Positions 25,073 to 64,000 of a stretch of 64,000 nucleotides of DNA are shown here, in pieces; position 1 is the stretch's first letter, and each line of letters begins with the position of its first letter. Below the pieces are notes generated by a model. That model was not told the DNA's origin and searched no databases. It was given only the letters and a program-made list of their open reading frames with translations. Made by a program: the position numbers and the translations under genes. The stretch covers positions 1,024,001 to 1,088,000 of the forward strand of contig CM000435.1 in the NCBI GenBank assembly GCA_000165345.1. The letters are read 5' to 3'.

Positions 25073-26281
25073 TTATAAGTTTTTGTTATTTTCTAAAAGG
25101 TGGGGTCTGAGTAAGGCTAATGTAAGTCCGATCGCTTCTTCTGTTCTTATGGTTCTGGATCTTTGCTCTGGACATATATTAATGTACATGTCAAATAAAG
25201 AGGAAGGATTTTTGACCTTGTCTAGAGAGCATTGAGGATCGCTAAGAACATCTTCAAGGCCTCCAAGGCCACCAAACACTATAAGTATGTGTTTAAAACT
25301 TTGTGATTTCGAGTCTTTGCCTTTAGTAGAGAGTTTAAAGTTGTTGTCAACAGGTTCACCTCTCTCAGAAGTTCCTATCTTCAAATCGTACCCTTCTTCG
25401 TATTCTGAGTCATTGAAAACGCTCTTTAATGAGTTTGCTGGTCGAACTTTGTATCCCCAATATATTCCTTTTTTTCTATAAGGAGTTGAGTCATCAACCA
25501 GCTTACCAGTAAAATAGGATTTAATTTCGGAATACCTTCCAAACTTATTAAAGTCAGAACAGAGTTTTTTATGAAGACTTTCTGACTCTTTTGACATTTT
25601 GATAGTGATTCTGGTGTTATTTTCAAGTTTAGTTTCAATCCAAGCTTCAACAGGAAGTCCACAATTAACCCAACTTCCCTTATTTTTATGTTCCGGCGAA
25701 ATAGTTCCTTTAAAGAGCTTTGGGCCTGGAACTATTACTCCCTGTCTGTAAGGAAGCCATTCAGAAATTCTCATATGGTGAGGAGCGTCAATTGGATTCT
25801 GTAAACCTGCAAACTTAAAATCGTTATCAAACTTAAAAAGGGTCTTTCTGAGGTATTGAGGGGTCTCCAGATACTTTAAATTCTTCACAAAAAACTCCAT
25901 CCATTTTGAACAAGCAAACTCTACCCATTCCTTTGAGGACCTATTCTCATTATCTGTTACATCTTTACATTTATCCTCGTAAATAATGATTTCGTCCACA
26001 CCAAATACAGAAATTATCCTGGCAATTTGGCCAACTAAGTAGGCTCTCAGCTCAAAAGATTGGGCATTTCCAGCAATAGATGCTGGAATTGCAACGCTTA
26101 ATGTAGCTTTTGATGGACTTCCTGCAAATGGTATCTTTGAAAGGATATCATCATTTCCTTCCGAACTAGATTGAAGACTAGCCTGGGATTCGTTTTGTCT
26201 CCTACTCCCGGATCTTTCCCTTGAGCTTGGACTATTCTTAGACTGCCCTTGTCTATTTTTAATAGTCTTTTTAGCGTCCAT
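25073..26281 (-). CDS. SPOUT-class methyltransferase, a homolog of the C9orf114/SPOUT1 (DUF171) family
   Basis: The stretch LSVAIPASIAGNAQSFELRAYLVGQIARIISVFGVDEIIIYED matches the DUF171 N-terminal block. The C-terminal stretch HILIVFGGLGGLEDV....RTEEAIGLTLALLRP is typical of the SPOUT knot region. A real ATG is present. Confidence 0.6.
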   Translation of the reverse strand: MDAKKTIKNRQGQSKNSPSSRERSGSRRQNESQASLQSSSEGNDDILSKIPFAGSPSKATLSVAIPASIAGNAQSFELRAYLVGQIARIISVFGVDEIIIYEDKCKDVTDNENRSSKEWVEFACSKWMEFFVKNLKYLETPQYLRKTLFKFDNDFKFAGLQNPIDAPHHMRISEWLPYRQGVIVPGPKLFKGTISPEHKNKGSWVNCGLPVEAWIETKLENNTRITIKMSKESESLHKKLCSDFNKFGRYSEIKSYFTGKLVDDSTPYRKKGIYWGYKVRPANSLKSVFNDSEYEEGYDLKIGTSERGEPVDNNFKLSTKGKDSKSQSFKHILIVFGGLGGLEDVLSDPQCSLDKVKNPSSLFDMYINICPEQRSRTIRTEEAIGLTLALLRPHLLENNKNL

Positions 26282-26322: not shown

Positions 26323-26338
26323 TTGGCGCCGGCGCCAA
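26323..26338. promoter_or_regulatory. Perfect 16-bp palindrome TTGGCGCCGGCGCCAA. It comprises two overlapping E2F-like sites and sits in the 99-bp divergent promoter between SPOUT1 and DDX41.
   Basis: The palindrome was read directly at 26323..26338. It is centred in the inter-ATG spacer. Confidence 0.5.
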
Positions 26339-26380: not shown

Positions 26381-28093
26381 ATGGATGATAACAAGAGATC
26401 TCTGTATGCAATTTCGAGGTCTATAAGAGATGAGGAGGAAAAAAAGCGGAAATTGAACCCTCATTACTCTTTAGATACTTTAAAAGCAGAGGAGGAAAAG
26501 TTATTAGCAGCTGTGAACCAATCATACAATGCACCTTTAAAAGCAGTTCATGAGATTGCTAAAGGAATAACTTTTTCTAAGCGTGAGGAAACTTCCTGGA
26601 GGGTTCCAAAAAAATATTCAAGTCTATCAGCATCTGAATGTCAGGATCTCAGATCCCGTTTGCTAATTGTTGTTAATGGTTCTGATGTACCTCCTCCGAT
26701 ATTATCTTTCAAAGATATGGGGTTTCCCCAAGAAATTTTAGACGCTTTAGCAAGTAAGGGGATTTCTAAACCCTCTCAGATTCAAATGCAAGGTCTACCT
26801 ATAATACTCATGGGAAGAGATTTGATAGGGCTTGCTTTTACAGGAAGTGGGAAAACTATAGTTTTTGTTCTTCCTATGATAATGTTTTCTCTAGAGGCTG
26901 AGTTAAGCCTTCCATTTAAAGGAATGGAAGGCCCTCATTCTCTTGTTCTTTGTCCATCTAGAGAGCTTGCTCTACAAATTAAGAGAATTATTGATGAGTT
27001 TATTGAATTTTTAACAGGAAAGTCGAATAAAAGTGACGAGTATTCTTCTAATCCAAGAAATACAAAATATCCAGAATTAAGGGTTTCTTGCGTTATTGGA
27101 GGAGAGGATTCTGGAAAGCAGCTTGCAGAATATAAAATGAAGGGTATACACATGATGGTAGCAACACCTGGAAGATTGGCAGATTTACTGAAAAGACGAA
27201 AAGTGACTCTACAACAATGCGAGTATTTTTGTATGGATGAAGCTGACAGGCTTACTGAACAAGGATTTGATGAACATTTAAGATACATTTTTGATAGTTT
27301 CTATGAGAGAAGACAAACGGTTTTATTTTCAGCAACAATGCCTAGAAAGACTCAAGAGTTTGCTCAAACTGCTTTAATTGATCCAGTTGTAGTAAATGTA
27401 GGTAGAGCAGGAGCAGCAAATTTAAGAGTAATTCAGGAATTCGAATATGTTAGACAGGAGCGTAGACTCGTTAGTTTGCTATCATGTTTGCAAAAGACTG
27501 CACCTAGAGTATTAATATTCAGTGAAAATAAAAAAGATGTGGATGAAATTCACGAATACTTACTATTAAAAGGAGTGAATGCAGTGGCAATACATGGAGG
27601 TCTTACTCAAGAACAACGTTTCAGATCTATTGAAAAGTTTAGAAATGGGGAAATGGATGTACTTGTTGGGACTGATGTGGCATCAAAAGGATTAGACTTT
27701 GAAAATATTCAACATGTAATAAATTTTGATATGCCAAAAGAGATTGAAAATTATGTTCATAGAATTGGGAGAACAGGGAGAGGAGGTTCTGTAGGAGTGT
27801 CAACCACGTTTATAGATAATACTCTACCAGAAGCATTATTATGTGATCTAAAAGCTTTATTAATAGAAGCAAAACAAGAAATTCCTCCATTTTTAGAACA
27901 GTTTGATAGCACAAATACTTCCCTTCAGGAGATTGGAGGAGTTAGAGGTTGTGCATATTGTGGTGGACTTGGACATCGTATTGGTCAGTGTACTAAACTT
28001 TTAGAGTTACAAAGAAAAACCCAGTCTGGAGCTCCTAAAGATGCTCTCTCACTTGGAGCTAGATATACAAGTTCAAATAAAGAAGATTGGTAG
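26381..28093 (+). CDS. DDX41: DEAD-box RNA helicase DDX41/Abstrakt ortholog with a C-terminal CCHC zinc knuckle
   Basis: Motif I is AFTGSGKT, motif II is DEAD (MDEADR), SAT is present, and motif VI is HRIGRTGR. There is a long collinear match to human DDX41, for example LIFSENKKDVDEIHEYLLLKGVNAVAIHGG and VINFDMPKEIENYVHRIGRTGR. The C-terminal CAYCGGLGHRIGQC is a CCHC knuckle, as in DDX41. Confidence 0.9.
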   Translation: MDDNKRSLYAISRSIRDEEEKKRKLNPHYSLDTLKAEEEKLLAAVNQSYNAPLKAVHEIAKGITFSKREETSWRVPKKYSSLSASECQDLRSRLLIVVNGSDVPPPILSFKDMGFPQEILDALASKGISKPSQIQMQGLPIILMGRDLIGLAFTGSGKTIVFVLPMIMFSLEAELSLPFKGMEGPHSLVLCPSRELALQIKRIIDEFIEFLTGKSNKSDEYSSNPRNTKYPELRVSCVIGGEDSGKQLAEYKMKGIHMMVATPGRLADLLKRRKVTLQQCEYFCMDEADRLTEQGFDEHLRYIFDSFYERRQTVLFSATMPRKTQEFAQTALIDPVVVNVGRAGAANLRVIQEFEYVRQERRLVSLLSCLQKTAPRVLIFSENKKDVDEIHEYLLLKGVNAVAIHGGLTQEQRFRSIEKFRNGEMDVLVGTDVASKGLDFENIQHVINFDMPKEIENYVHRIGRTGRGGSVGVSTTFIDNTLPEALLCDLKALLIEAKQEIPPFLEQFDSTNTSLQEIGGVRGCAYCGGLGHRIGQCTKLLELQRKTQSGAPKDALSLGARYTSSNKEDW

Positions 28094-55578: not shown

Positions 55579-57633
55579 TTAATCTCTTGAGTATTTGAAT
55601 TGATCAGGTCTACTATTTAAAATGATTTGATCTCGCTCACTTACAACCCATGCAACAACAACTGTAATGTCATCAAGCTTTCCTCCAGTACTAAACTGCC
55701 AAAGTTCATCGCTGACGCTACAATGTCTGTTAAAAGGGGTCTTTGCCTTTGGATCCAAAGATTTGATGTATGCTGCATTTGCTAGAGCCTTGGATATGTT
55801 ATGAGGGCTTGAATATAATTTGGGATCTTTTAGTAACCTAATTGCCTCATATGGGGAGATTGCTCCGCTACATATGCTACAAATTTCATAATCAAACAAA
55901 TTATCAAATAAACCATCGGTAGCAACTACAATTAAGTCACTTTGGGAAAGGGTAATCTCTTTGGTTATTGAATGAGATGGTAAATCCTGAGGAACATCCT
56001 CGCTATTTTTAACAAGATTAATAAAACAAGTCAATCCCTTTTCTTGTAACATTGGAAAATCTTCAGGAGTTGGAAGCCTTGATAACTGAAATGGACAATT
56101 AAAAGAATGTTGCTGAGCTGGACTTCTATAAACAATACCCATCCTAAAAGTTTCAGGAGTTCTTCTTAATATAATTATCCCAGAGTCTCCCAAATATGAA
56201 ATCTGAAGTTTGCTAGTCTTTGGGTCAAAACATGCAACAAAAGCTGTAGATGAGCCAAAAGACTGCGTATTCTTATATCCCTCCATCAACAAAAACTGAG
56301 AGTAAGAAAGAGCCTGAGAGTCACTGTTGAATTGTTTTCCTAAGTTAAACATTTCCTCTTTATCGTCTTTATCCAACTCATTCTGTGGCTCAGTCCTTTC
56401 TTCCATACTGTAACCTATATCAAACTTTAATTTTGCTCCTTTAGAACGATGCGTAAATCCACGAAATTCCGAGACCTCCCTACTTTCCATTGTCATTTTC
56501 TTTGTCGCATCTGGCTTAATGTTTGCATGCACCACATTTTTCTTTAAAATTGCCACGTCATTAGGCGGGGGGCGGGGTTGCATGCATTTTGTATTAAGAT
56601 AAGCTTCTCTCATTCCAGAAATGAGTTCAGAAGCGAATAATTTTGGGTTAACTCCAAAGTTGGCCCATTCTCCCACTCCATCGGCAATTCCGATTACATT
56701 TTCCTCATAAAAGTGTGCATCCTCTCCTCCGTAGTGAACTTTTGAAGGATGGGGGTGAGAGCAGCTCCCAATGGATAAATTCAAGACTGCTCCATCTTTT
56801 TTTGGTCGAATATATTCTGGAATTCTAAGGAAAATATCAATTCCTTTAAGGTAGCTAGTAACATTTGAAGGCCAAGCTTTATTAGAGTGTGTTGAAATCC
56901 TCCTAAGTCTGTCCTCTTTCAGAGCCATATTTAGCCTTTCCATACCATCGTCATTATAGGGTGGAAATGCAACAGTAGTACTTGTCATAACTCTGTATAT
57001 GGCGGGCCGTCCTGAAGTTGGAGTATTAGAAGAGGGAGAGTTTATGGTAGAGGATGCAGATGAAGATGCAGAGGTACTTTTTGAATAGTCATAAATATCT
57101 TTATTAACATTCCATTCGTATACTTCTCTTTGGGTAGTTGTTTTGTCTTGTCCTTCTACTTCTAACTCCAATTCTAAATCCAAAATTTCTCCCGAATAAA
57201 AGTTACTATTCTGACTGAGGTTTGAACGAGCAAACATTAGACCATCGCTAAAGCATCTACTCATGAAGGATTTCTGGTAAATATTGTCATTACGTTCTCT
57301 TTTTCCTTGGCTACTTTCTTCGACTTCTATTTCTGCCTCCCTACTACCTTCTGAGCCCTTTGACCAAGCCTCATTTGGGCTCTGATTGGACGTTGCATTC
57401 TGGGATGGAGAGAAATTACCTGAAATTGAACCAGCTGTTGACTGGGATGAATATCTTTTTGAATGGTAAAGCTTTTCAGGAAGCTCTTTTGAAAATATCC
57501 TCAATACATTCTTTGAATGGCTTACTATACTCTCTCCTCCCAAATGGCTATTCCTTGCTAAATCCTCCAAAAACCTCCGAAATATTACAGAGGGCTCTTG
57601 CTCTTCCTGTATTCTTTCATTTTCTTTATACAT
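55579..57633 (-). CDS. PTC7-type PP2C/PPM phosphatase with a long Ser-rich N-terminal extension of about 684 aa. It is the second PTC7-like gene in the window.
   Basis: The tracked ORF ends at 57657 with a GTG start. The first ATG, at 57633, gives MYKENERIQEE. The catalytic core follows: IGIADGVGEWANFGVNPKLFASELI, then IVVATDGLFDNLFD and a C-terminal GGKLDDITVVVAWVV. An E2F-like TTGGCGCC at 57688..57695 lies just upstream of the trimmed start. Confidence 0.65.
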   Translation of the reverse strand: MYKENERIQEEQEPSVIFRRFLEDLARNSHLGGESIVSHSKNVLRIFSKELPEKLYHSKRYSSQSTAGSISGNFSPSQNATSNQSPNEAWSKGSEGSREAEIEVEESSQGKRERNDNIYQKSFMSRCFSDGLMFARSNLSQNSNFYSGEILDLELELEVEGQDKTTTQREVYEWNVNKDIYDYSKSTSASSSASSTINSPSSNTPTSGRPAIYRVMTSTTVAFPPYNDDGMERLNMALKEDRLRRISTHSNKAWPSNVTSYLKGIDIFLRIPEYIRPKKDGAVLNLSIGSCSHPHPSKVHYGGEDAHFYEENVIGIADGVGEWANFGVNPKLFASELISGMREAYLNTKCMQPRPPPNDVAILKKNVVHANIKPDATKKMTMESREVSEFRGFTHRSKGAKLKFDIGYSMEERTEPQNELDKDDKEEMFNLGKQFNSDSQALSYSQFLLMEGYKNTQSFGSSTAFVACFDPKTSKLQISYLGDSGIIILRRTPETFRMGIVYRSPAQQHSFNCPFQLSRLPTPEDFPMLQEKGLTCFINLVKNSEDVPQDLPSHSITKEITLSQSDLIVVATDGLFDNLFDYEICSICSGAISPYEAIRLLKDPKLYSSPHNISKALANAAYIKSLDPKAKTPFNRHCSVSDELWQFSTGGKLDDITVVVAWVVSERDQIILNSRPDQFKYSRD

Positions 57634-57695: not shown

Positions 57696-58041
57696 TAAAT
57701 GCTGGACATGCCGCTCACAGGTACCGAATCTAAAAATACGTTTGGGGGCCCCCAAAGCTGGTGTAGGAGAAAAATATCAAAAATTAATTAAATATCAAAA
57801 ATTACAAAGGAGACAAAAATATAAGATATTATTCAGGAAAAATTTCTTCAGGATTAGATTTATTAAGGTTTTATTTTCCTTTATTGATACTATTATGATT
57901 ACGGCTATTCCTTTAAATCTATCTACGTTCTCAGCAGATTCGACTATTCATCTTTAATACTTACCACGATTTCTCCTTTTTTTCCCATATTCCAGCTTCT
58001 TCCTCTTCTTAGTTTTCACCCAGCTCAATCTTTTTAACTGA

Positions 58042-59847
58042 TTATATTATGCATACTAGATTTCTAGGATTGGTCTCCCAACTTAAAATTGCCATAGTAA
58101 CGGAGGTAAAGGAGATTACGCTACCAATAAAAACCATAAATCCAATAAAGAGTTGTCCGGCTTTTGAAATTCTCTCCCTATTAAGACTGAAATAGAATAA
58201 AGGTGGATAAACAAATGCTAAAGGAACACATAATAGTCCTCCAGTAATTGTTACAAAGCTTCCTAACTCATCTTCAAAGTTATAGGCTAAAATCCCACAT
58301 AATAAAACCAGAGAATAAGAAATTAAAGCCCTCAGAGCTGAGTGGTGGAACTTTGATCTGGAATCTATGAGTCTGTCTTGGCTCAAGTCAACGATCTGGG
58401 CCCCATCGTCTTCTATTTCCTCTAGCCTTTCCAAGCTTTCCTTCTTTACTATTCTTGGAATACTTTTATTACTCTTATCACCGCCAATACCGCTACAAAT
58501 ATCAGTCTCCAAATTCTCAATAACTGCTCCTTTCTCTGATTTATTCTCTTTATTAGCCTTCATATTTTCCAATTTCAAACTGGAAGTTGAATTCTCCACA
58601 GGAGAGTAAACCACTTTGTTCCCAATGGAGGAATCCCAGCTTTCAGATATTGACGCAAGCTGAATAATCTTTGAAGTAGAAAACAGATTGTTCTGGAATG
58701 ATGATATATTCTCTGAATTCTTCAAAGAGGAGGAAGAAAAATTCAGCTGAGAAGCCCTTAAAATATTTGTACTCGTAGGATTTATCCGGATATTCTTTTT
58801 TGAAAGCTCACTTTCATGCTGGTCATCTGTGATCATGAAAAGTTCTTTCTTAATCTCTTTTCCGGTTACTTTCTCTTTATCAACTTTTGAAACAGGATTT
58901 GTCTCAATCTTCTCCAGATTCTCCATACTCTTTCTTCCTATAAAGGGAAGTTTTATCTGAAATATATATTTTTCTATAATCCCCATAGATGGGAAAAGCT
59001 GTAATGGGACGGAAAACATTATTGCAGATGAGTATATTATTAGAGAAATTATTTTGGCTTTTGGATTCAATATATTCTCAGTTACTGGAGAGGTAGTATC
59101 ATCACCAAATGAATAGTAAACAAAGCTTGCAAAGAAGTTTGAGATTACCCCAATCAATATCATTGTAAAGGTTAATATTGCTGGAAAAGCTTGGAGTAAA
59201 TACTCCGGAGTTGAATTCCTTATTGGAAGTATCAACGCTATTCCTTCATAATTAAATGCACTTGTTCCAAGTACTAACCCTGCTCCATATATGCTACCAA
59301 GCCTTGAAATTTCTGGTCTACCAATCGGATATCTTTCCAGATTTTGATAACCATAATAGATTATTACTCCAAGTACTGAGAACACTGAAATATTTGCTAA
59401 TACACTGAGAAATCCCAGATTTTCAATATCTCTCAAAAAGATAAAGGGTAAGTAAATTACCATCTGGAAACAAATCAGCTTAAGTATTGGAATTTCTAAC
59501 TGGCAACTTGAAATGGAATATATTATTTCTTGAATATTATGAGATACAAAAATCATATAAACTGTAGAAAAGCCTAGCTGAGAAAAGAATATTGAAGTAT
59601 CAACCAAAATTAATCCAGATCTTCCCCAAACTCTCTCTGCTAACTCTCCTAAGGTTTCTTTGCCTTGACAACACTTAACCAAAAATCTGATTGAAATGAT
59701 AGCCAAGAAACAAACCAAAGTTGATAATATATTTCCACTAATAATACCTGAAACTCTAAACGTTCCTGGCAAAAAGATAATCCCAGTCCCAATAAAAGAC
59801 TTGATCAGTGTGACCATTATCCTCAAGCACGGCCTCACTCTTTTCAT
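58042..59847 (-). CDS. Amino-acid transporter of the AAAP/Aa_trans (SLC32/36/38-like) family, a multi-pass membrane protein
   Basis: The N-terminal TM1 motif LIKSFIGTGIIFLPGTF is diagnostic of the Aa_trans family, which has KxFxGxGxLxLP. About 10 hydrophobic segments are present, with a long hydrophilic loop of about 170 aa. The tracked ORF starts with a TTG at 59871, and the first ATG gives MKRVRPCLRIMVTL. A TTTTAG acceptor-like sequence lies immediately upstream, so a short 5' exon cannot be excluded. Confidence 0.6.
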   Translation of the reverse strand: MKRVRPCLRIMVTLIKSFIGTGIIFLPGTFRVSGIISGNILSTLVCFLAIISIRFLVKCCQGKETLGELAERVWGRSGLILVDTSIFFSQLGFSTVYMIFVSHNIQEIIYSISSCQLEIPILKLICFQMVIYLPFIFLRDIENLGFLSVLANISVFSVLGVIIYYGYQNLERYPIGRPEISRLGSIYGAGLVLGTSAFNYEGIALILPIRNSTPEYLLQAFPAILTFTMILIGVISNFFASFVYYSFGDDTTSPVTENILNPKAKIISLIIYSSAIMFSVPLQLFPSMGIIEKYIFQIKLPFIGRKSMENLEKIETNPVSKVDKEKVTGKEIKKELFMITDDQHESELSKKNIRINPTSTNILRASQLNFSSSSLKNSENISSFQNNLFSTSKIIQLASISESWDSSIGNKVVYSPVENSTSSLKLENMKANKENKSEKGAVIENLETDICSGIGGDKSNKSIPRIVKKESLERLEEIEDDGAQIVDLSQDRLIDSRSKFHHSALRALISYSLVLLCGILAYNFEDELGSFVTITGGLLCVPLAFVYPPLFYFSLNRERISKAGQLFIGFMVFIGSVISFTSVTMAILSWETNPRNLVCII

Positions 59848-60045
59848 TATTAATGGCTCTAAAATTCCCAAGTTATAAAAGAATATTGTACAATTATCTT
59901 TCTATGAGCCAGTTACACTGTATATCATAACTCCTTCTTGTATTTTTCTCTTTTATTTTTCCTTTTTTCTCTTCTTCCAGATAATTTCTCTTTTCTCTTT
60001 ATTAAATGCTTTTACATGCAAAAATGCACCAAATTTTGAGATTAT

Positions 60046-60055
60046 GCCGCCAAAA
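60046..60055. promoter_or_regulatory. E2F-like motif GCCGCCAAAA (reverse complement TTTTGGCGGC) upstream of the amino-acid transporter gene
   Basis: The string gattatgccgccaaaaatgattg was read directly. Confidence 0.35.
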
Positions 60056-60666
60056 ATGATTGTCTTTAATTATATTCCCAATTAGAACCAGAGGAATTAA
60101 TTTGAATGAGTGTTATAGATCGAACTTTTTTAAAGCATTTCTATAAAATATGAACTCAACATATTTGGATTCTTATATTCTTTAAAACTTACCTTGGTTA
60201 AGTTTGGACTGATCTAACTTACCAGAATATTAGAAGCCTTGATTTCCAAATTAATTATAGCTTTTATTATCCCTAATAATATAGAAGGGATTTTTAATAT
60301 AATATATCTGATCTTGAGAAATGATTACTCTGTTTATGAAGGAAATCTGAAAAGAAAAAAACAAAATTGAAGTTGAGTAATATTAATTTATTAGGTGTGG
60401 GAAGATGAAAATTGGTTTCTGAACTGATGAAAAGATAGACTGCATTGAACTGAGTTAAACAAGAAATAATTAATAATCTGAAATATAAATTTCTATAAGC
60501 CAATAATAAATTAATCTTCTTGCTGTTTTTGAATATAAATCTTTATCATATATTGATCAGCTTTGGCTGGAAGAATAATTAAGAATGATTTGCTGTATAT
60601 AGGGAGTCGTTATATTGTTTATTTGGATTATAAGATTTGCATACAATACAGTAAAATTCTTTTCTA

Positions 60667-62805
60667 TTACTCTGTAGAAGTTGTAGTACTAGTAGTATCC
60701 TTTGTACAACTCTTTCCGTAAATCATAAAGGAACCACCAGTTTGAGTGCTATCAACAAACATTTGAGAAACCTCAATCTTGACCTCCTTTGCAGTTAATG
60801 GGTACTGTAACATATATTTATGAGCATTTAGACTGGCAGTGTGGGCAAGAGTAAACTTCTCTTGGACGTTAGTCTCATGCATTTCATCAACTTGTTGTTT
60901 AATATACATGGTCAATGAAGCTGGCCACATTGATGGATTATCCAATGGAATATATTGGAAGTCAGTGACTTCAACAGGTTGCTTGAATTTGATGGTAATG
61001 CTCTCACCGATAGTATTTCCTACAGAAGTTTTCCAAGCTCCAAAAGGCTCATCGCGATTCTTTCCCTTTAATGCATAGATCCCATCATATTCAGGACTTT
61101 GAGAAGATGAAGACTTTACAGATTCAACAAAAGCATCAGTACTGAGGAGCTTTCTTTCTGAACATTGTGTGGTAGCTAAGGATGCTTCAGTTGGATGCTG
61201 CTTGAAGAAGAGAATGAAAGGTTTGGATTCATTAACCTTAAGAGAGATATCAGTTGCTTTTGGGATAGTTACTTGTGCAACCTTCATTGTTTGAGTTTCA
61301 ACAGCCTTGCTGGAATCAGTTTTGTCAGTCTTATAGATTGAGAATACAGAGTCAGTGTTAGTGAATTGGAGATTTTCAGCAGTGACTGGCAATTTATCAG
61401 TAACATCAGCAGCAATGAACATTGTGCATGGCTGATTAACACTAACCTTCATATTGTGTAGTTCTGGGGAAGATGATGACTTAAGCATCTTTAAGCCTTC
61501 AAATCCAGATGGTAAGTCAGCAATGAAATGGGTATTACTATCCTTGTGAGCAAATTCTCCATTTCTTAAAGTAGAGATCTCATAAAATACTGGGTTAACA
61601 CCTGAAAGTTTCAATGGTTGTCTTGGATTTCCAGTATAGAAGTATGAACTTGGGATAACCTGCTCTTGAATATTTGAAGTCTTCCACATTAATTTAATTG
61701 AGGCAATATCTGGATTTTTATATCTAAGATGACTGCTATGGAACATCTCAACTCTAATTCTATACTTTTGCCCACCAACTAATTCTTGAGCTACTGAAGT
61801 AACTTTAACTGGGCCATCATGTCTTGCATCCAATAATAATGGAACAGCTCTCTCAGAGGAGGCATCCCCAGAGGAAGGTTGTGGCATTCTGTCGATAATG
61901 ATTGCTCTTCCACCCAAGAATAATCTTGCTCCACAATCAGCTTCAATGCTGAAGTAGTATCTTCCAGACTCAGGAGCAAGTAAAAATCCGTCCCATCTGA
62001 TGGAAAATTGCTGATTTGGAACACCCTCAATCGGGTCCTTTGAAATATACATCATATTAATATTTCTATCATTTCTATAATTTCTTGGAGCACCATCAAA
62101 CTTTGGATTGTCATAATATGACCCTCTTAAACCATCTGGGAAAGGAATATCTTCATATCCTGGTAACAACTCACAGTTTTCTGGTCTGCTCAAAGCAAAG
62201 TCACGATCTCTTACGATATCTTTTTCTAATTCATCAATGCTTGTTTTTAAAACATCAACCTTTGTAATTGATTCTTCAATCTTATTCAGGCAATGCTGAC
62301 CTTTCTGAATTAATGACTCAATATTGTCCAATCTACTGCTTACTATTGATTGCTGAGAACCACAAGTACTGTTGTATCTCTCAAGCAAGTCTGTTAATCT
62401 TGAAGCTTGGTTATCTAATTGATTTGCAATCTTAGCTGATTCTCTTGCCTTGACTTCAAAAATCTCATTTGCCTTTGTACGGAGCATATCATAGTTCACA
62501 ACAGGTAAGCAGTAATTCCAGTTCTTTGAACCTTGGGATGCTACCTGTGGCTCAACATAACACCACTCTCTTCCAGAAGTCCCATCTGGAGACTTTGCTA
62601 TTGTACAATCTGTATATGTCTGGAAATCCTGTACAAATACTGCAGAACAGAGTCTTCCATCTACTGTTCTCCTAAATTGTTGTCTATACTGAGCAAGCTC
62701 CTGAAGAAGCTGCGAAGTTGGTGCTTGTTGAGTTGTTTGGCTCAAAGCATTTCCTGCCAATAATATGAAGCTTAGGCCTTTAAATACACCCTTGAATTTC
62801 AACAT
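60667..62805 (-). CDS. Secreted multidomain protein with a fibronectin type II-like module, a coiled coil and a PA14 (anthrax protective antigen N-terminal-like) domain. Its architecture matches apicomplexan FNPA/CCp5-type adhesion proteins.
   Basis: The tracked ORF ends at 62979 with a GTG start. An in-frame ATG at 62805 gives MLKFKGVFKGLSFILLAGNALSQ, a signal peptide. The FN2-like stretch is CSAVFVQDFQTYTDCTIAKSPDGTSGREWCYVEPQVASQGSKNWNYC. A heptad-rich coiled-coil region follows. The PA14-like stretch is GSYYDNPKFDGAPRNYRNDRNINMMYISKDP......FSIRWDGFLLAPESGRYYFSIEADCGARLFLGGRAIIIDRM. No TM segment is present. An alternative earlier ATG (M11, about 62949) lies within a TGCATGC-rich promoter-like segment. 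Confidence 0.6.
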   Translation of the reverse strand: MLKFKGVFKGLSFILLAGNALSQTTQQAPTSQLLQELAQYRQQFRRTVDGRLCSAVFVQDFQTYTDCTIAKSPDGTSGREWCYVEPQVASQGSKNWNYCLPVVNYDMLRTKANEIFEVKARESAKIANQLDNQASRLTDLLERYNSTCGSQQSIVSSRLDNIESLIQKGQHCLNKIEESITKVDVLKTSIDELEKDIVRDRDFALSRPENCELLPGYEDIPFPDGLRGSYYDNPKFDGAPRNYRNDRNINMMYISKDPIEGVPNQQFSIRWDGFLLAPESGRYYFSIEADCGARLFLGGRAIIIDRMPQPSSGDASSERAVPLLLDARHDGPVKVTSVAQELVGGQKYRIRVEMFHSSHLRYKNPDIASIKLMWKTSNIQEQVIPSSYFYTGNPRQPLKLSGVNPVFYEISTLRNGEFAHKDSNTHFIADLPSGFEGLKMLKSSSSPELHNMKVSVNQPCTMFIAADVTDKLPVTAENLQFTNTDSVFSIYKTDKTDSSKAVETQTMKVAQVTIPKATDISLKVNESKPFILFFKQHPTEASLATTQCSERKLLSTDAFVESVKSSSSQSPEYDGIYALKGKNRDEPFGAWKTSVGNTIGESITIKFKQPVEVTDFQYIPLDNPSMWPASLTMYIKQQVDEMHETNVQEKFTLAHTASLNAHKYMLQYPLTAKEVKIEVSQMFVDSTQTGGSFMIYGKSCTKDTTSTTTSTE

Positions 62806-62900
62806 TTCTTCCTTTTTTATTTTGAAACTCTCAAGATGAGAATATTTCTTGTTTTTAAAAAATATATTTTCAAAAACTATTACTTTTACTATCCTGTAAT

Positions 62901-62968
62901 TGCATGCGTGGGGACCATATTTGCATATACCGTCTTTATTGGCATGCATACTTGCAAATTTGCATGCG
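62901..62968. promoter_or_regulatory. Cluster of three TGCATGC(G/A) palindromic motifs immediately upstream of the FN2/PA14 gene. There is no GGCGCC motif in this promoter.
   Basis: The motifs are tgcatgcg at 62901, gcatgcat at 62942 and tgcatgcg at 62961, all within 70 nt. Confidence 0.4.
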
Positions 62969-63217
62969 CACTTGTCCACATGCTTAATATTAATTTAATT
63001 AAAATATATATGAAATTCCAATATATAAATTTCAAAGTTTTATTTGTTAGTTAAAAGAGGTAAAATTTCAATATTAACCCTACTTTGATTTTTTTTTTTT
63101 ATAATTTAAATTTAAAAATTCTATTTATAGTTAATACTAAAAAGGATATAAATATAGATATATGTTATTTTATTTAGAAATATCTGGATACTTTGATTAA
63201 TTGAACCAATTTATGCC

Positions 63218-64000
63218 TTATTTTTTTATTAACAAAAAGCATAAAACGGCCAAAACAAGCAAAGCCCCAAACCCTAAAACCAAATAAAATGTATTACTAG
63301 ACAAGAACGATTGCAGACTGTTTGGAGGTTTTCCACTGAAGACGATTTGTCTTCCTAGCTGTAACTCTCTGCTAACCTCTCTTGGCACCTTCCTGCTAAT
63401 CTGTACCTTTTCTGTATATTTGTAATTCTTCTCTGCCTCGTCCTTATCTTCATCTTCTTTGTTAGATGATTGTGCGTTTTTTGATACCCTCCCATGTTCA
63501 AATTCCTCAAAGTCCTCCTCATCTTCATACTCCTCCTGCTGTACCGTATTTCCAGGATAATCTTTCAAAAGTCCCTGAACAATTTTATATTGTGCTAACT
63601 GTGATTCAAGCATCCTTGAACACGACAAACGGAGGCAAAACTTATAAAATCTCATATCACATGATTTTTTTTCTTTGCATTTAGCTTTAACTTTAAATTC
63701 ATATGGTCTATAAACCCCAGACCTATCAAGTGGTAAAGAAAATGATCTAGAAATCATTGTCATGGTTTCTTTCGTCTTCTTGTGTTTTAATTTTAATGGA
63801 TTCAAATTATGGGTAATCGGACAAAGAGAATTTCCTCTTGATGCCCTAACATTCATACCACGCATATTAATCTCCTCCAAGGTTTCATCTAAATCAATCT
63901 GAAATTCAATTGGAGGAATTGTCTTACCTTTTGGCTTATTGATCAAGACCGCAATGTTAAAAGTGACAGTGGAATAAAGTGAAGTATAACTACCTGTTGA
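63218..64000 (-). CDS. Hypothetical tail-anchored membrane protein with an acidic middle region and a C-terminal TM helix. The 5' end is unresolved. The reading frame stays open to the window edge, so the N-terminus may lie outside the window.
   Basis: The tracked ORF 63218..63946 begins with a TTG. The frame stays open upstream through 63947..64000, reading STGSYTSLYSTVTFNIAV-LINKPKGK.... The C-terminus FYLVLGFGALLVLAVLCFLLIKK followed by a stop is a TM anchor. The alternative start is internal Met28, MRGMNVRAS. Confidence 0.35.
   Translation of the reverse strand, partial: STGSYTSLYSTVTFNIAVLINKPKGKTIPPIEFQIDLDETLEEINMRGMNVRASRGNSLCPITHNLNPLKLKHKKTKETMTMISRSFSLPLDRSGVYRPYEFKVKAKCKEKKSCDMRFYKFCLRLSCSRMLESQLAQYKIVQGLLKDYPGNTVQQEEYEDEEDFEEFEHGRVSKNAQSSNKEDEDKDEAEKNYKYTEKVQISRKVPREVSRELQLGRQIVFSGKPPNSLQSFLSSNTFYLVLGFGALLVLAVLCFLLIKK

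Follow-up and report, generated by a model that had tools for sequence, protein, structure and literature searches.

A 64,000-nucleotide stretch of Cryptosporidium parvum chromosome 7 (contig CM000435.1 of GenBank assembly GCA_000165345.1, positions 1,024,001 to 1,088,000 of the forward strand; G+C about 33%; hereafter the window) carries on its minus strand a gene for a predicted secreted protein, and it raises the question of what this protein is, at which of two in-frame ATG codons its translation begins, and what the cluster of TGCATGC motifs in front of it signifies. We identify the gene as cgd7_4810 and its product as CpFNPA. The reading that we prefer, with a joint probability of about 0.88, is that CpFNPA is a LAP5-type protein and a member of the crystalloid complex, that its expression in females is driven by AP2_1 sites in its promoter, and that its start codon lies at position 62805 of the window. 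The coding sequence with its start codon, the domain set, the family to which the protein belongs and the motif, present and conserved, were obtained in this analysis; female-specific expression and persistence in oocysts are documented in the literature.

The identification rests on sequence and on gene order. An exact-sequence look-up found the 712-residue product to be identical to EAK90448.1/XP_628628.1, deposited as "CpFNPA." The downstream neighbours in the window encode a transporter of the Aa_trans family and a PP2C phosphatase, and the supplementary tables of Tandel et al. (2019; PMC6877471) list cgd7_4810, "Fibronectin II collagen-binding/PA14," after cgd7_4800, "Amino acid transporter." Because the match to CpFNPA is 100% and the Aa_trans/PP2C synteny fits cgd7_4790/4800/4810, the window gene is taken to be cgd7_4810. 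Another identifier, cgd7_5140 (named in a review as an AP2-F target), was ruled out; it denotes a different protein, CpSP1, and the primer given for it does not fall within the window. The gene had already been described, and neither its identity nor its start codon nor its promoter motif is new; with architecture, family, female-specific expression and organelle assignment also published, the finding adds little to what is known of the locus. An earlier, sequence-only reading of this DNA had proposed a secreted adhesion-family protein with fibronectin type II (FN2) and PA14 domains, a corrected start site and an unusual promoter; its observations are confirmed and its interpretation is supported, with two qualifications, concerning the start-site "correction" and the "unusual" promoter, that are given below.

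Domain architecture of CpFNPA

CpFNPA begins with a predicted signal peptide and an FN2 module; a helical spacer leads to the PA14 domain, after which an unassigned beta domain precedes the discoidin domain at the C-terminal end, and no LCCL domain is present (Table 1). The PA14 domain that had been read from the sequence is recovered by Pfam far above the cut-off. Foldseek searches with the whole AlphaFold model agree, matching this side of the protein to RsgI PA14, anthrax protective antigen and Candida Epa1A, and the discoidin side to factor V/VIII C1-C2, neuropilin b1b2 and CBM32. For the discoidin domain of the C. parvum protein the sequence score is marginal (PF00754, 25.7-27.2 bits, just under the 28.2 cut-off); the same Pfam family is recorded for the C. 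canis orthologue and, marked as weak, for that of C. felis, and Toxoplasma CCp5 scores exactly at the cut-off.

The FN2 module is the weakest of the domain calls. As a single sequence it scores 18.7-19.1 bits against Pfam fn2 (cut-off 22.2; E about 1e-3), a sub-threshold match that recurs in 11/11 homologues tested, and a profile built from 11 sequences of the module reached FN2 and kringle domains of the PDB with an E value of only about 0.01. A profile of 43 modules from the family, however, matches MMP-9 (5.3e-12), MMP-2 (1.2e-10), fibronectin (5.7e-9) and factor XII (1e-5) in the PDB, and its alignment with MMP-9 covers each of the three FN2 repeats with all four cysteines aligned; SEL1L, the cation-independent mannose-6-phosphate receptor and the mannose-receptor family are matched as well. 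Because the FN2 region of the full-length AlphaFold model is uninformative (predicted local distance difference test, pLDDT, 32-37), the module was modelled separately with a deeper alignment, which gave a pLDDT of 74.8 (85-87 in the core). The top 16 Foldseek matches of this module model in the PDB are all FN2 structures, followed by kringles; the best is the FnII domain of factor XII (7prk; template-modelling score 0.74 normalised to the target, 30% identity). On the strength of these profile and fold matches we accept the module as a predicted, slightly expanded FN2 variant with two short insertions, and so the FN2 claim of the sequence-only reading stands. The four-cysteine module and the conserved aromatics are common to CpFNPA and animal FN2 (the gelatin-binding repeats of MMP-2/-9, fibronectin and factor XII); the differences are insertions of four residues between the second and third cysteines and of two between the third and fourth, and ligand binding is putative. 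The cysteines and aromatic residues that had been written out as a schematic of the module are indeed present, and C53, C67, C82, C99 and those aromatics are invariant in family alignments of 16 and 23 sequences; the spacing in the schematic was inexact, in that C53 to F57 reads C...F and the interval from W81-C82 to N95 spans 12 residues, not 7.

Between the FN2 and PA14 domains the AlphaFold model places two long helices with block pLDDT values of 46-80, lowest at the turn between them. The domain that follows PA14 is modelled as beta strands (block pLDDT mostly 74-88) and has no sequence match in Pfam or the PDB, profile searches included; it is the "unspecified domain" of LAP3/5 proteins in PMC11285972. 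The idea that it is a diverged second discoidin domain was rejected: hhalign gave a probability of 0.1% when the two family alignments were compared, and searches of the PDB and Pfam with profiles returned nothing, the sole hint of a beta-sandwich relation being the whole-model Foldseek matches to tandem discoidin proteins. Both the middle and the discoidin domains are collinear with those of every family member aligned.

No match to the LCCL family PF03815 was found in CpFNPA, and an LCCL hidden Markov model (HMM) derived from the family found none in any Cryptosporidium protein; as a control, the Toxoplasma and Vitrella relatives score for PF03815 in Pfam. A remnant of the LCCL or C-terminal domain of related proteins, or a second exon past the stop codon (59872-60666), was sought by tblastn with six CCp5 C-termini and rejected, as only the discoidin tail was recovered; the same search found no remnant of either domain elsewhere in the window.

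Table 1. Features of the cgd7_4810 locus in window coordinates
Feature	Position	Strand	Basis or remark
cgd7_4810/CpFNPA, complete coding sequence, single exon	60667..62805	-	712 aa + stop (713 codons)
Predicted signal peptide, aa 1-23 (MLKFKGVFKGLSFILLAGNALSQ)	62737..62805	-	Hydrophobicity heuristic
Fibronectin type II module, aa 45-106	62488..62673	-	Cys53, 67, 82, 99; profile and fold matches
Two long alpha-helices, aa 105-147 and 156-206	62188..62493	-	AlphaFold secondary structure
PA14, aa 224-386	61648..62136	-	Pfam PF07691, E=9.1e-24, 84.4 bits, cut-off 24
Family-specific beta-rich domain, ~165 residues, aa 387-549	61159..61647	-	Conserved throughout the family
Discoidin/F5/8 type C, aa 550-702 (Pfam match aa 563-681)	60700..61158	-	PF00754 and Foldseek
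Intergenic region and promoter, cgd7_4820 to cgd7_4810, 412 nt	62806..63217	-	Upstream open reading frame ends at 63218
Conserved cis-regulatory block, ~90 nt, with AP2_1 sites	62896..62983	-	Upstream alignment, six Cryptosporidium species
AP2_1 site 1, TGCATGC extending to TGCATGCG on + strand	62961..62967	+	GCATGC core at -162
AP2_1 site 2, aTGCATGCc on gene strand	62942..62948	-	Core at -142
AP2_1 site 3, TGCATGCG on + strand	62901..62907	+	Core at -102

Relationship to the FNPA and CCp5 proteins

CpFNPA is an FNPA/CCp5-type (LAP3/5-type) member of the apicomplexan LCCL/CCp family, as the sequence-only reading had held: the exact sequence carries the FNPA name in the databases, and its nearest relatives are CCp5 and the LCCL-less FNPA proteins. 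Full-length homologues are the CCp5/FNPA proteins of Toxoplasma, Plasmodium, Eimeria, Theileria, Babesia, Besnoitia and Vitrella. The nearest outside the genus are LCCL-bearing CCp5 proteins of about 1000 aa from Toxoplasma (41% identity, 637 bits), Eimeria, Plasmodium and Babesia. An exhaustive HMMER search added LCCL-less paralogues of about 840-980 aa from Besnoitia, P. gonderi (FNPA-type, judging from its architecture), Theileria equi and Babesia gibsoni, together with an LCCL-bearing Vitrella protein; Plasmodium FNPA was never returned by word-indexed searches, whether with a single sequence or with a profile, and was recovered only by the exhaustive search.

In PMC11285972 the LAP3/5 proteins are described as FN, PA14, an unspecified domain, F58C, LCCL (LAP3 only) and GAL. 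Plasmodium FNPA/LAP5 (PfFNPA; P. gonderi XP_028545160.1, 863 aa) and its orthologues in Besnoitia, Theileria and Babesia share the domain order of CpFNPA, likewise have no LCCL domain, and are homologous to it over the full length (33-38% identity, E 1e-124 to 1e-131), but they carry at the C-terminus an extra domain, about 130-180 aa long and probably the "GAL" of that description, which Cryptosporidium does not have. CCp5/LAP3 proteins (PfCCp5, Toxoplasma CCp5, Vitrella CEM32701.1) are collinear with CpFNPA from the FN2 module through the whole discoidin domain and differ in having both an LCCL domain (PF03815) and the C-terminal domain. An HMM of the C-terminal domain, which in LAP5-type proteins follows discoidin, matches the LCCL-less proteins of Besnoitia, Plasmodium, Theileria and Babesia and no Cryptosporidium protein; the latter end some 10-25 residues past the discoidin domain. 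Cryptosporidium thus has neither the LCCL nor the C-terminal galactose-binding-like domain, and in every other lineage sampled CCp5 and FNPA keep the latter.

Which of the two paralogues CpFNPA descends from is a separate matter. The single cryptosporidian protein is classed as LAP5 in PMC11285972, which infers the loss of lap3, and Pradel 2004 likewise regarded it as an orthologue of FNPA. We accept this published family assignment; strict orthology to FNPA, as opposed to CCp5, is not reproduced by a simple neighbour-joining tree (corrected p-distances, 625 columns, 200 bootstraps), a method prone to long-branch effects. In this tree the LCCL-less clade of Besnoitia, Plasmodium, Theileria and Babesia has 89% bootstrap support and leaves Cryptosporidium outside, the CCp5 (LAP3) clade has 59%, and the position of Cryptosporidium itself only 33-38%. 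The search for orthologues among FNPA and CCp5 proteins that the sequence-only reading had called for yields full-length homology, and the tree does not place the protein inside the FNPA clade.

A less probable alternative is that CpFNPA is not the orthologue of Plasmodium FNPA/LAP5, and is either a CCp5/LAP3 that has shed its LCCL and C-terminal domains or the descendant of an ancestor that had not yet duplicated, so that "FNPA" would describe its architecture only. The tree is not the sole argument for this alternative. All of the best matches outside Cryptosporidium in the first search were LCCL-bearing CCp5 proteins; over shared columns, identity is 42.8% to Toxoplasma CCp5 against 37.3% to the coccidian LCCL-less protein (for Plasmodium, 33.7-35.5% to CCp5 and 34.0% to FNPA); FNPA proteins of other genera have the C-terminal domain that Cryptosporidium has not; and OrthoMCL places cgd7_4810 in one ortholog group with two P. 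berghei and two Eimeria genes. The published classification stands against it, and faster evolution of FNPA could explain the higher identity to CCp5. We would offer only as a tentative description that the sole Cryptosporidium LAP3/5-type protein is a genus-wide minimal form, devoid of the LCCL and C-terminal domains, whose membership of the FNPA clade cannot be demonstrated. Were descent from CCp5 or from before the duplication true, the FNPA architecture would have arisen at least twice by domain loss, and the Cryptosporidium crystalloid complex would work without two modules that are conserved elsewhere. The missing C-terminal domain and the weakly supported position of CpFNPA relative to FNPA and CCp5 in the neighbour-joining tree are the small additions made by this analysis, minor points for studies of how the LAP/CCp complex evolved.

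Several sequences met during the family searches deserve mention in their own right. A 1098-aa protein of Babesia microti strain RI is named "cleavage and polyadenylation specificity factor subunit 5" by NCBI and UniRef (P0023 in our set); this looks like a mis-annotation, because the protein has the full CCp5 set of FN2, PA14, middle, discoidin, LCCL-like and C-terminal domains. Sequences derived from metagenomes or the Sequence Read Archive (P0064, P0066, P0067, P0069, P0077, P0139, P0058, P0059 and P0022), about 850-1240 aa in length and LCCL-bearing, form a clade with 100% bootstrap support apart from all named apicomplexan and Vitrella sequences, and may come from gregarines, colpodellids or colponemids. 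A further protein of 512 aa (P0135) has two FN2 modules of the family type, 59% identical to residues 31-89 of the query, and domain HMMs found none of the other family domains in it.

Expression, promoter and proposed role

The expression of cgd7_4810 is strongly female specific. Its log2 fold change between female and asexual stages is 12.9, and the c-Myc-tagged protein stains female gametes only in culture, with transgenic oocysts strongly reactive (Tandel et al. 2019; PMC6877471). Transcripts fall with eight inhibitors of differentiation and rise with an inducer (Hasan et al. 2024; PMC11078545), and the gene is listed in the crystalloid-body set, defined by hyperLOPIT, a hyperplexed isotope-tagging method for localising organelle proteins, in the analysis code of Tandel et al. 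(2023; PMC10233709).

Upstream of the gene, the block of about 90 nt that holds the three AP2_1 sites is near-identical in four species (C. parvum, C. ubiquitum, C. canis and C. felis), and C. bovis and C. muris retain part of it. Both C. ubiquitum and C. canis conserve the core of site 1, at -162 to -164; these two and C. felis also conserve that of site 2, at -141 to -148, and that of site 3, at -101 to -103. C. felis keeps two cores, and the two that C. bovis and C. muris each possess lie at other offsets. The three TGCATGC motifs noticed in the first reading are all real (Table 1), with the refinement that the palindrome is their shared core, GCATGC, and that TGCATGC itself reads on the gene's own strand in one copy only. 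The heptamer is frequent in the window (27 matches on both strands against 3.6 expected), and this is the only cluster of three GCATGC cores within 70 nt, for which P is about 0.005 when the 23 cores of the window are placed at random. That GGCGCC is missing from this promoter was also correctly noted: none occurs in 57696-64000, all 11 in the window (0.8 expected) lying no further than 57695, and none was found within 600 nt upstream of the gene in any of the species compared.

The further claim that such a promoter is unusual does not hold. Judged by sequence, the GCATGCA/TGCATGCA sites correspond to AP2_1, a well-known ApiAP2 motif of C. parvum, whose consensus BGCATGCAH is over-represented in 33 expression clusters (PMC3734150, PMC4117751) and is bound by cgd2_3490, cgd1_3520, cgd8_3230 and cgd5_4250 (PMC4117751). 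Both AP2_1 (TGCATGCA) and the Plasmodium AP2-Sp motif have the same core as the three sites; the full 8-mer palindrome is present in none of them, two reading TGCATGCG and one ATGCATGCC, and factor binding here is putative. The cgd7_4810 promoter is moreover one of those of 65 macrogamont genes that yielded the motif TGCATG(T/C)(G/A), linked to cgd2_3490 (PMC11078545); sites 1 and 3, as TGCATGCG on the plus strand, fit it. An AP2_1 motif ahead of a female-specific gene is also what was reported for this TGCATGYR set. A 2025 review names cgd2_3490 and AP2-F (cgd4_1110) as female-specific factors with AP2_1-like motifs. As a candidate minimal promoter for female-specific expression in Cryptosporidium genetics, the compact, conserved block is well defined.

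Taken together, these data are consistent with a mechanism in which transcription of cgd7_4810 would be driven by the three conserved GCATGC (AP2_1) sites, bound by a female-specific ApiAP2 factor that recognises TGCAT. The likeliest factor may be cgd2_3490 rather than AP2-F, because cgd7_4810 is absent from the table of genes changed by AP2-F ablation (PMC10233709). The protein would then enter the secretory pathway, by analogy with the Plasmodium LAPs, and its lectin-like modules may assemble it with CpCCp1, CpCCp2 and CpCCp3 into a complex that builds or fills the crystalloid. Again by analogy, it would be needed for sporozoite and oocyst development and for transmission, and not for binding to a specific host receptor; Plasmodium parasites that have lost LAPs show neither crystalloids nor sporozoite development (PMC11285972).

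Besides the tree described above, several points weigh against this reading. The localisation to the crystalloid comes from a gene list in the analysis code of another paper. The ligand of CpFNPA, its joining of a CCp complex and its essentiality are borrowed from Plasmodium. Secretion without a transmembrane segment is a prediction, with the signal peptide called by a heuristic only. An AP2_1-like motif is bound by AP2-F as well, and a gene's absence from a thresholded differential-expression table is weak evidence for setting that factor aside.

A second alternative, which we consider improbable, is that CpFNPA serves sporozoites or oocysts mainly as an adhesin, secreted or on the surface, and is not a structural or cargo component of the crystalloid, with FN2 binding collagen or gelatin and PA14 and discoidin binding carbohydrate. 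Its domains are indeed binding modules of the kinds typical of proteins for extracellular adhesion and for carbohydrate binding, the tagged protein is present in oocysts, and CpCCp1/Cpa135 has been reported in sporozoite apical organelles and the parasitophorous vacuole (cited in PMC11285972). A membrane anchor, however, is not apparent, the predicted fold containing no hydrophobic helix beyond the N-terminal stretch. Conservation of the family from chromerids to parasites whose hosts are unrelated speaks against a specific host ligand, as Pradel 2004 had also reasoned, and both the crystalloid-body listing and the phenotype of the Plasmodium LAPs favour the role in the crystalloid.

Two observations elsewhere in the window touch on the same motif. 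The neighbouring gene cgd7_4800 (Aa_trans; 58042-59847, minus strand) is also strongly female specific and belongs to the set of 65 macrogamont genes; its upstream region of about 800 nt (59848-60666) contains no GCATGC core, so its co-regulation is not explained by that motif. Two perfect TGCATGCA palindromes (56524-56531 and 56579-56586) stand 55 nt apart inside an open reading frame (ORF) at 55579-57633 on the minus strand, whose sole Pfam match is to PP2C in its C-terminal part (aa 557-618); they could be chance occurrences within coding sequence, or the ORF model could be too long.

Start codon and N-terminus

The minus-strand frame is open for 770 codons (60667-62979) and so extends upstream of 62805 as far as 62979. 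Deposited models differ accordingly: the newer records QOY40807.1 and WRK33663.1 give C. parvum a protein of 760 aa and some C. hominis records one of 771 aa, and models in most Cryptosporidium species have 710-726 aa. Comparison with the orthologous loci of five species (C. muris, C. bovis, C. ubiquitum, C. felis and C. canis), in which the surrounding gene order is conserved, points to the shorter form. In each of the five the frame is closed by a stop 15-33 nt upstream of the ATG that aligns with 62805, and an upstream in-frame ATG was not found in any of the five loci; of the six species only C. parvum keeps the frame open for 192 nt upstream, and its in-frame ATG there is at -144 (62949). 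Because the five other species close the frame so near the shared ATG, the long N-terminus is not conserved, in keeping with what the sequence-only reading had expected of orthologues. The ATG of the 760-aa models (62947-62949) overlaps AP2_1 site 2 and lies within the promoter motif, since it is part of ATGCATGC.

Translation therefore starts at 62805, and the 760-aa models begin inside the promoter. The start that the sequence-only reading proposed as a correction is the right one; it is not new, as it restores the original 2004 model already used in papers based on CryptoDB, and it corrects only the newer 760- and 771-aa GenBank models. The S6 File of PMC11078545, for example, takes as the cgd7_4810 promoter the 412 nt that end at the ATG at 62805. 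Relative to this start, QOY40807.1 and WRK33663.1 are too long by 48 codons at the N-terminus, and certain C. hominis records by 59; the 771-aa C. hominis models too begin in the promoter, and the comparative evidence from five species supports reverting to 712 aa.

The 712-aa N-terminus has the features of a signal peptide that had been claimed for it, with a basic stretch (lysines 3, 5 and 9) ahead of its most hydrophobic 9-mer, GLSFILLAG (aa 10-18), and an equivalent segment opens every Cryptosporidium orthologue. The proposal that the longer frame is real, with translation from 62949 and the hydrophobic stretch internal to a 760-aa protein, can draw on the open C. parvum frame with its ATG and on the automated annotations of C. 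parvum and C. hominis, but it is very improbable given the stops in five species, the overlap with an AP2_1 block conserved as DNA, the displacement of the conserved signal-peptide-like segment to residue 58 and the length of most deposited models.

The deposited model of the C. muris RN66 orthologue (L001:3001-3024) opens with MLFGIREKMLDKKK, and its annotated ATG has an in-frame stop 24 nt upstream; because its second methionine aligns with the start in the other species, this model may run seven codons too long.

Far from cgd7_4810, a tandem GGCGCCGGCGCC (26325-26336), comprising two adjacent E2F-type cores, lies in the 100-nt gap between two divergent ORFs (25073-26281 on the minus strand and 26381-28093 on the plus strand); it has the look of a bidirectional E2F promoter shared by the two.

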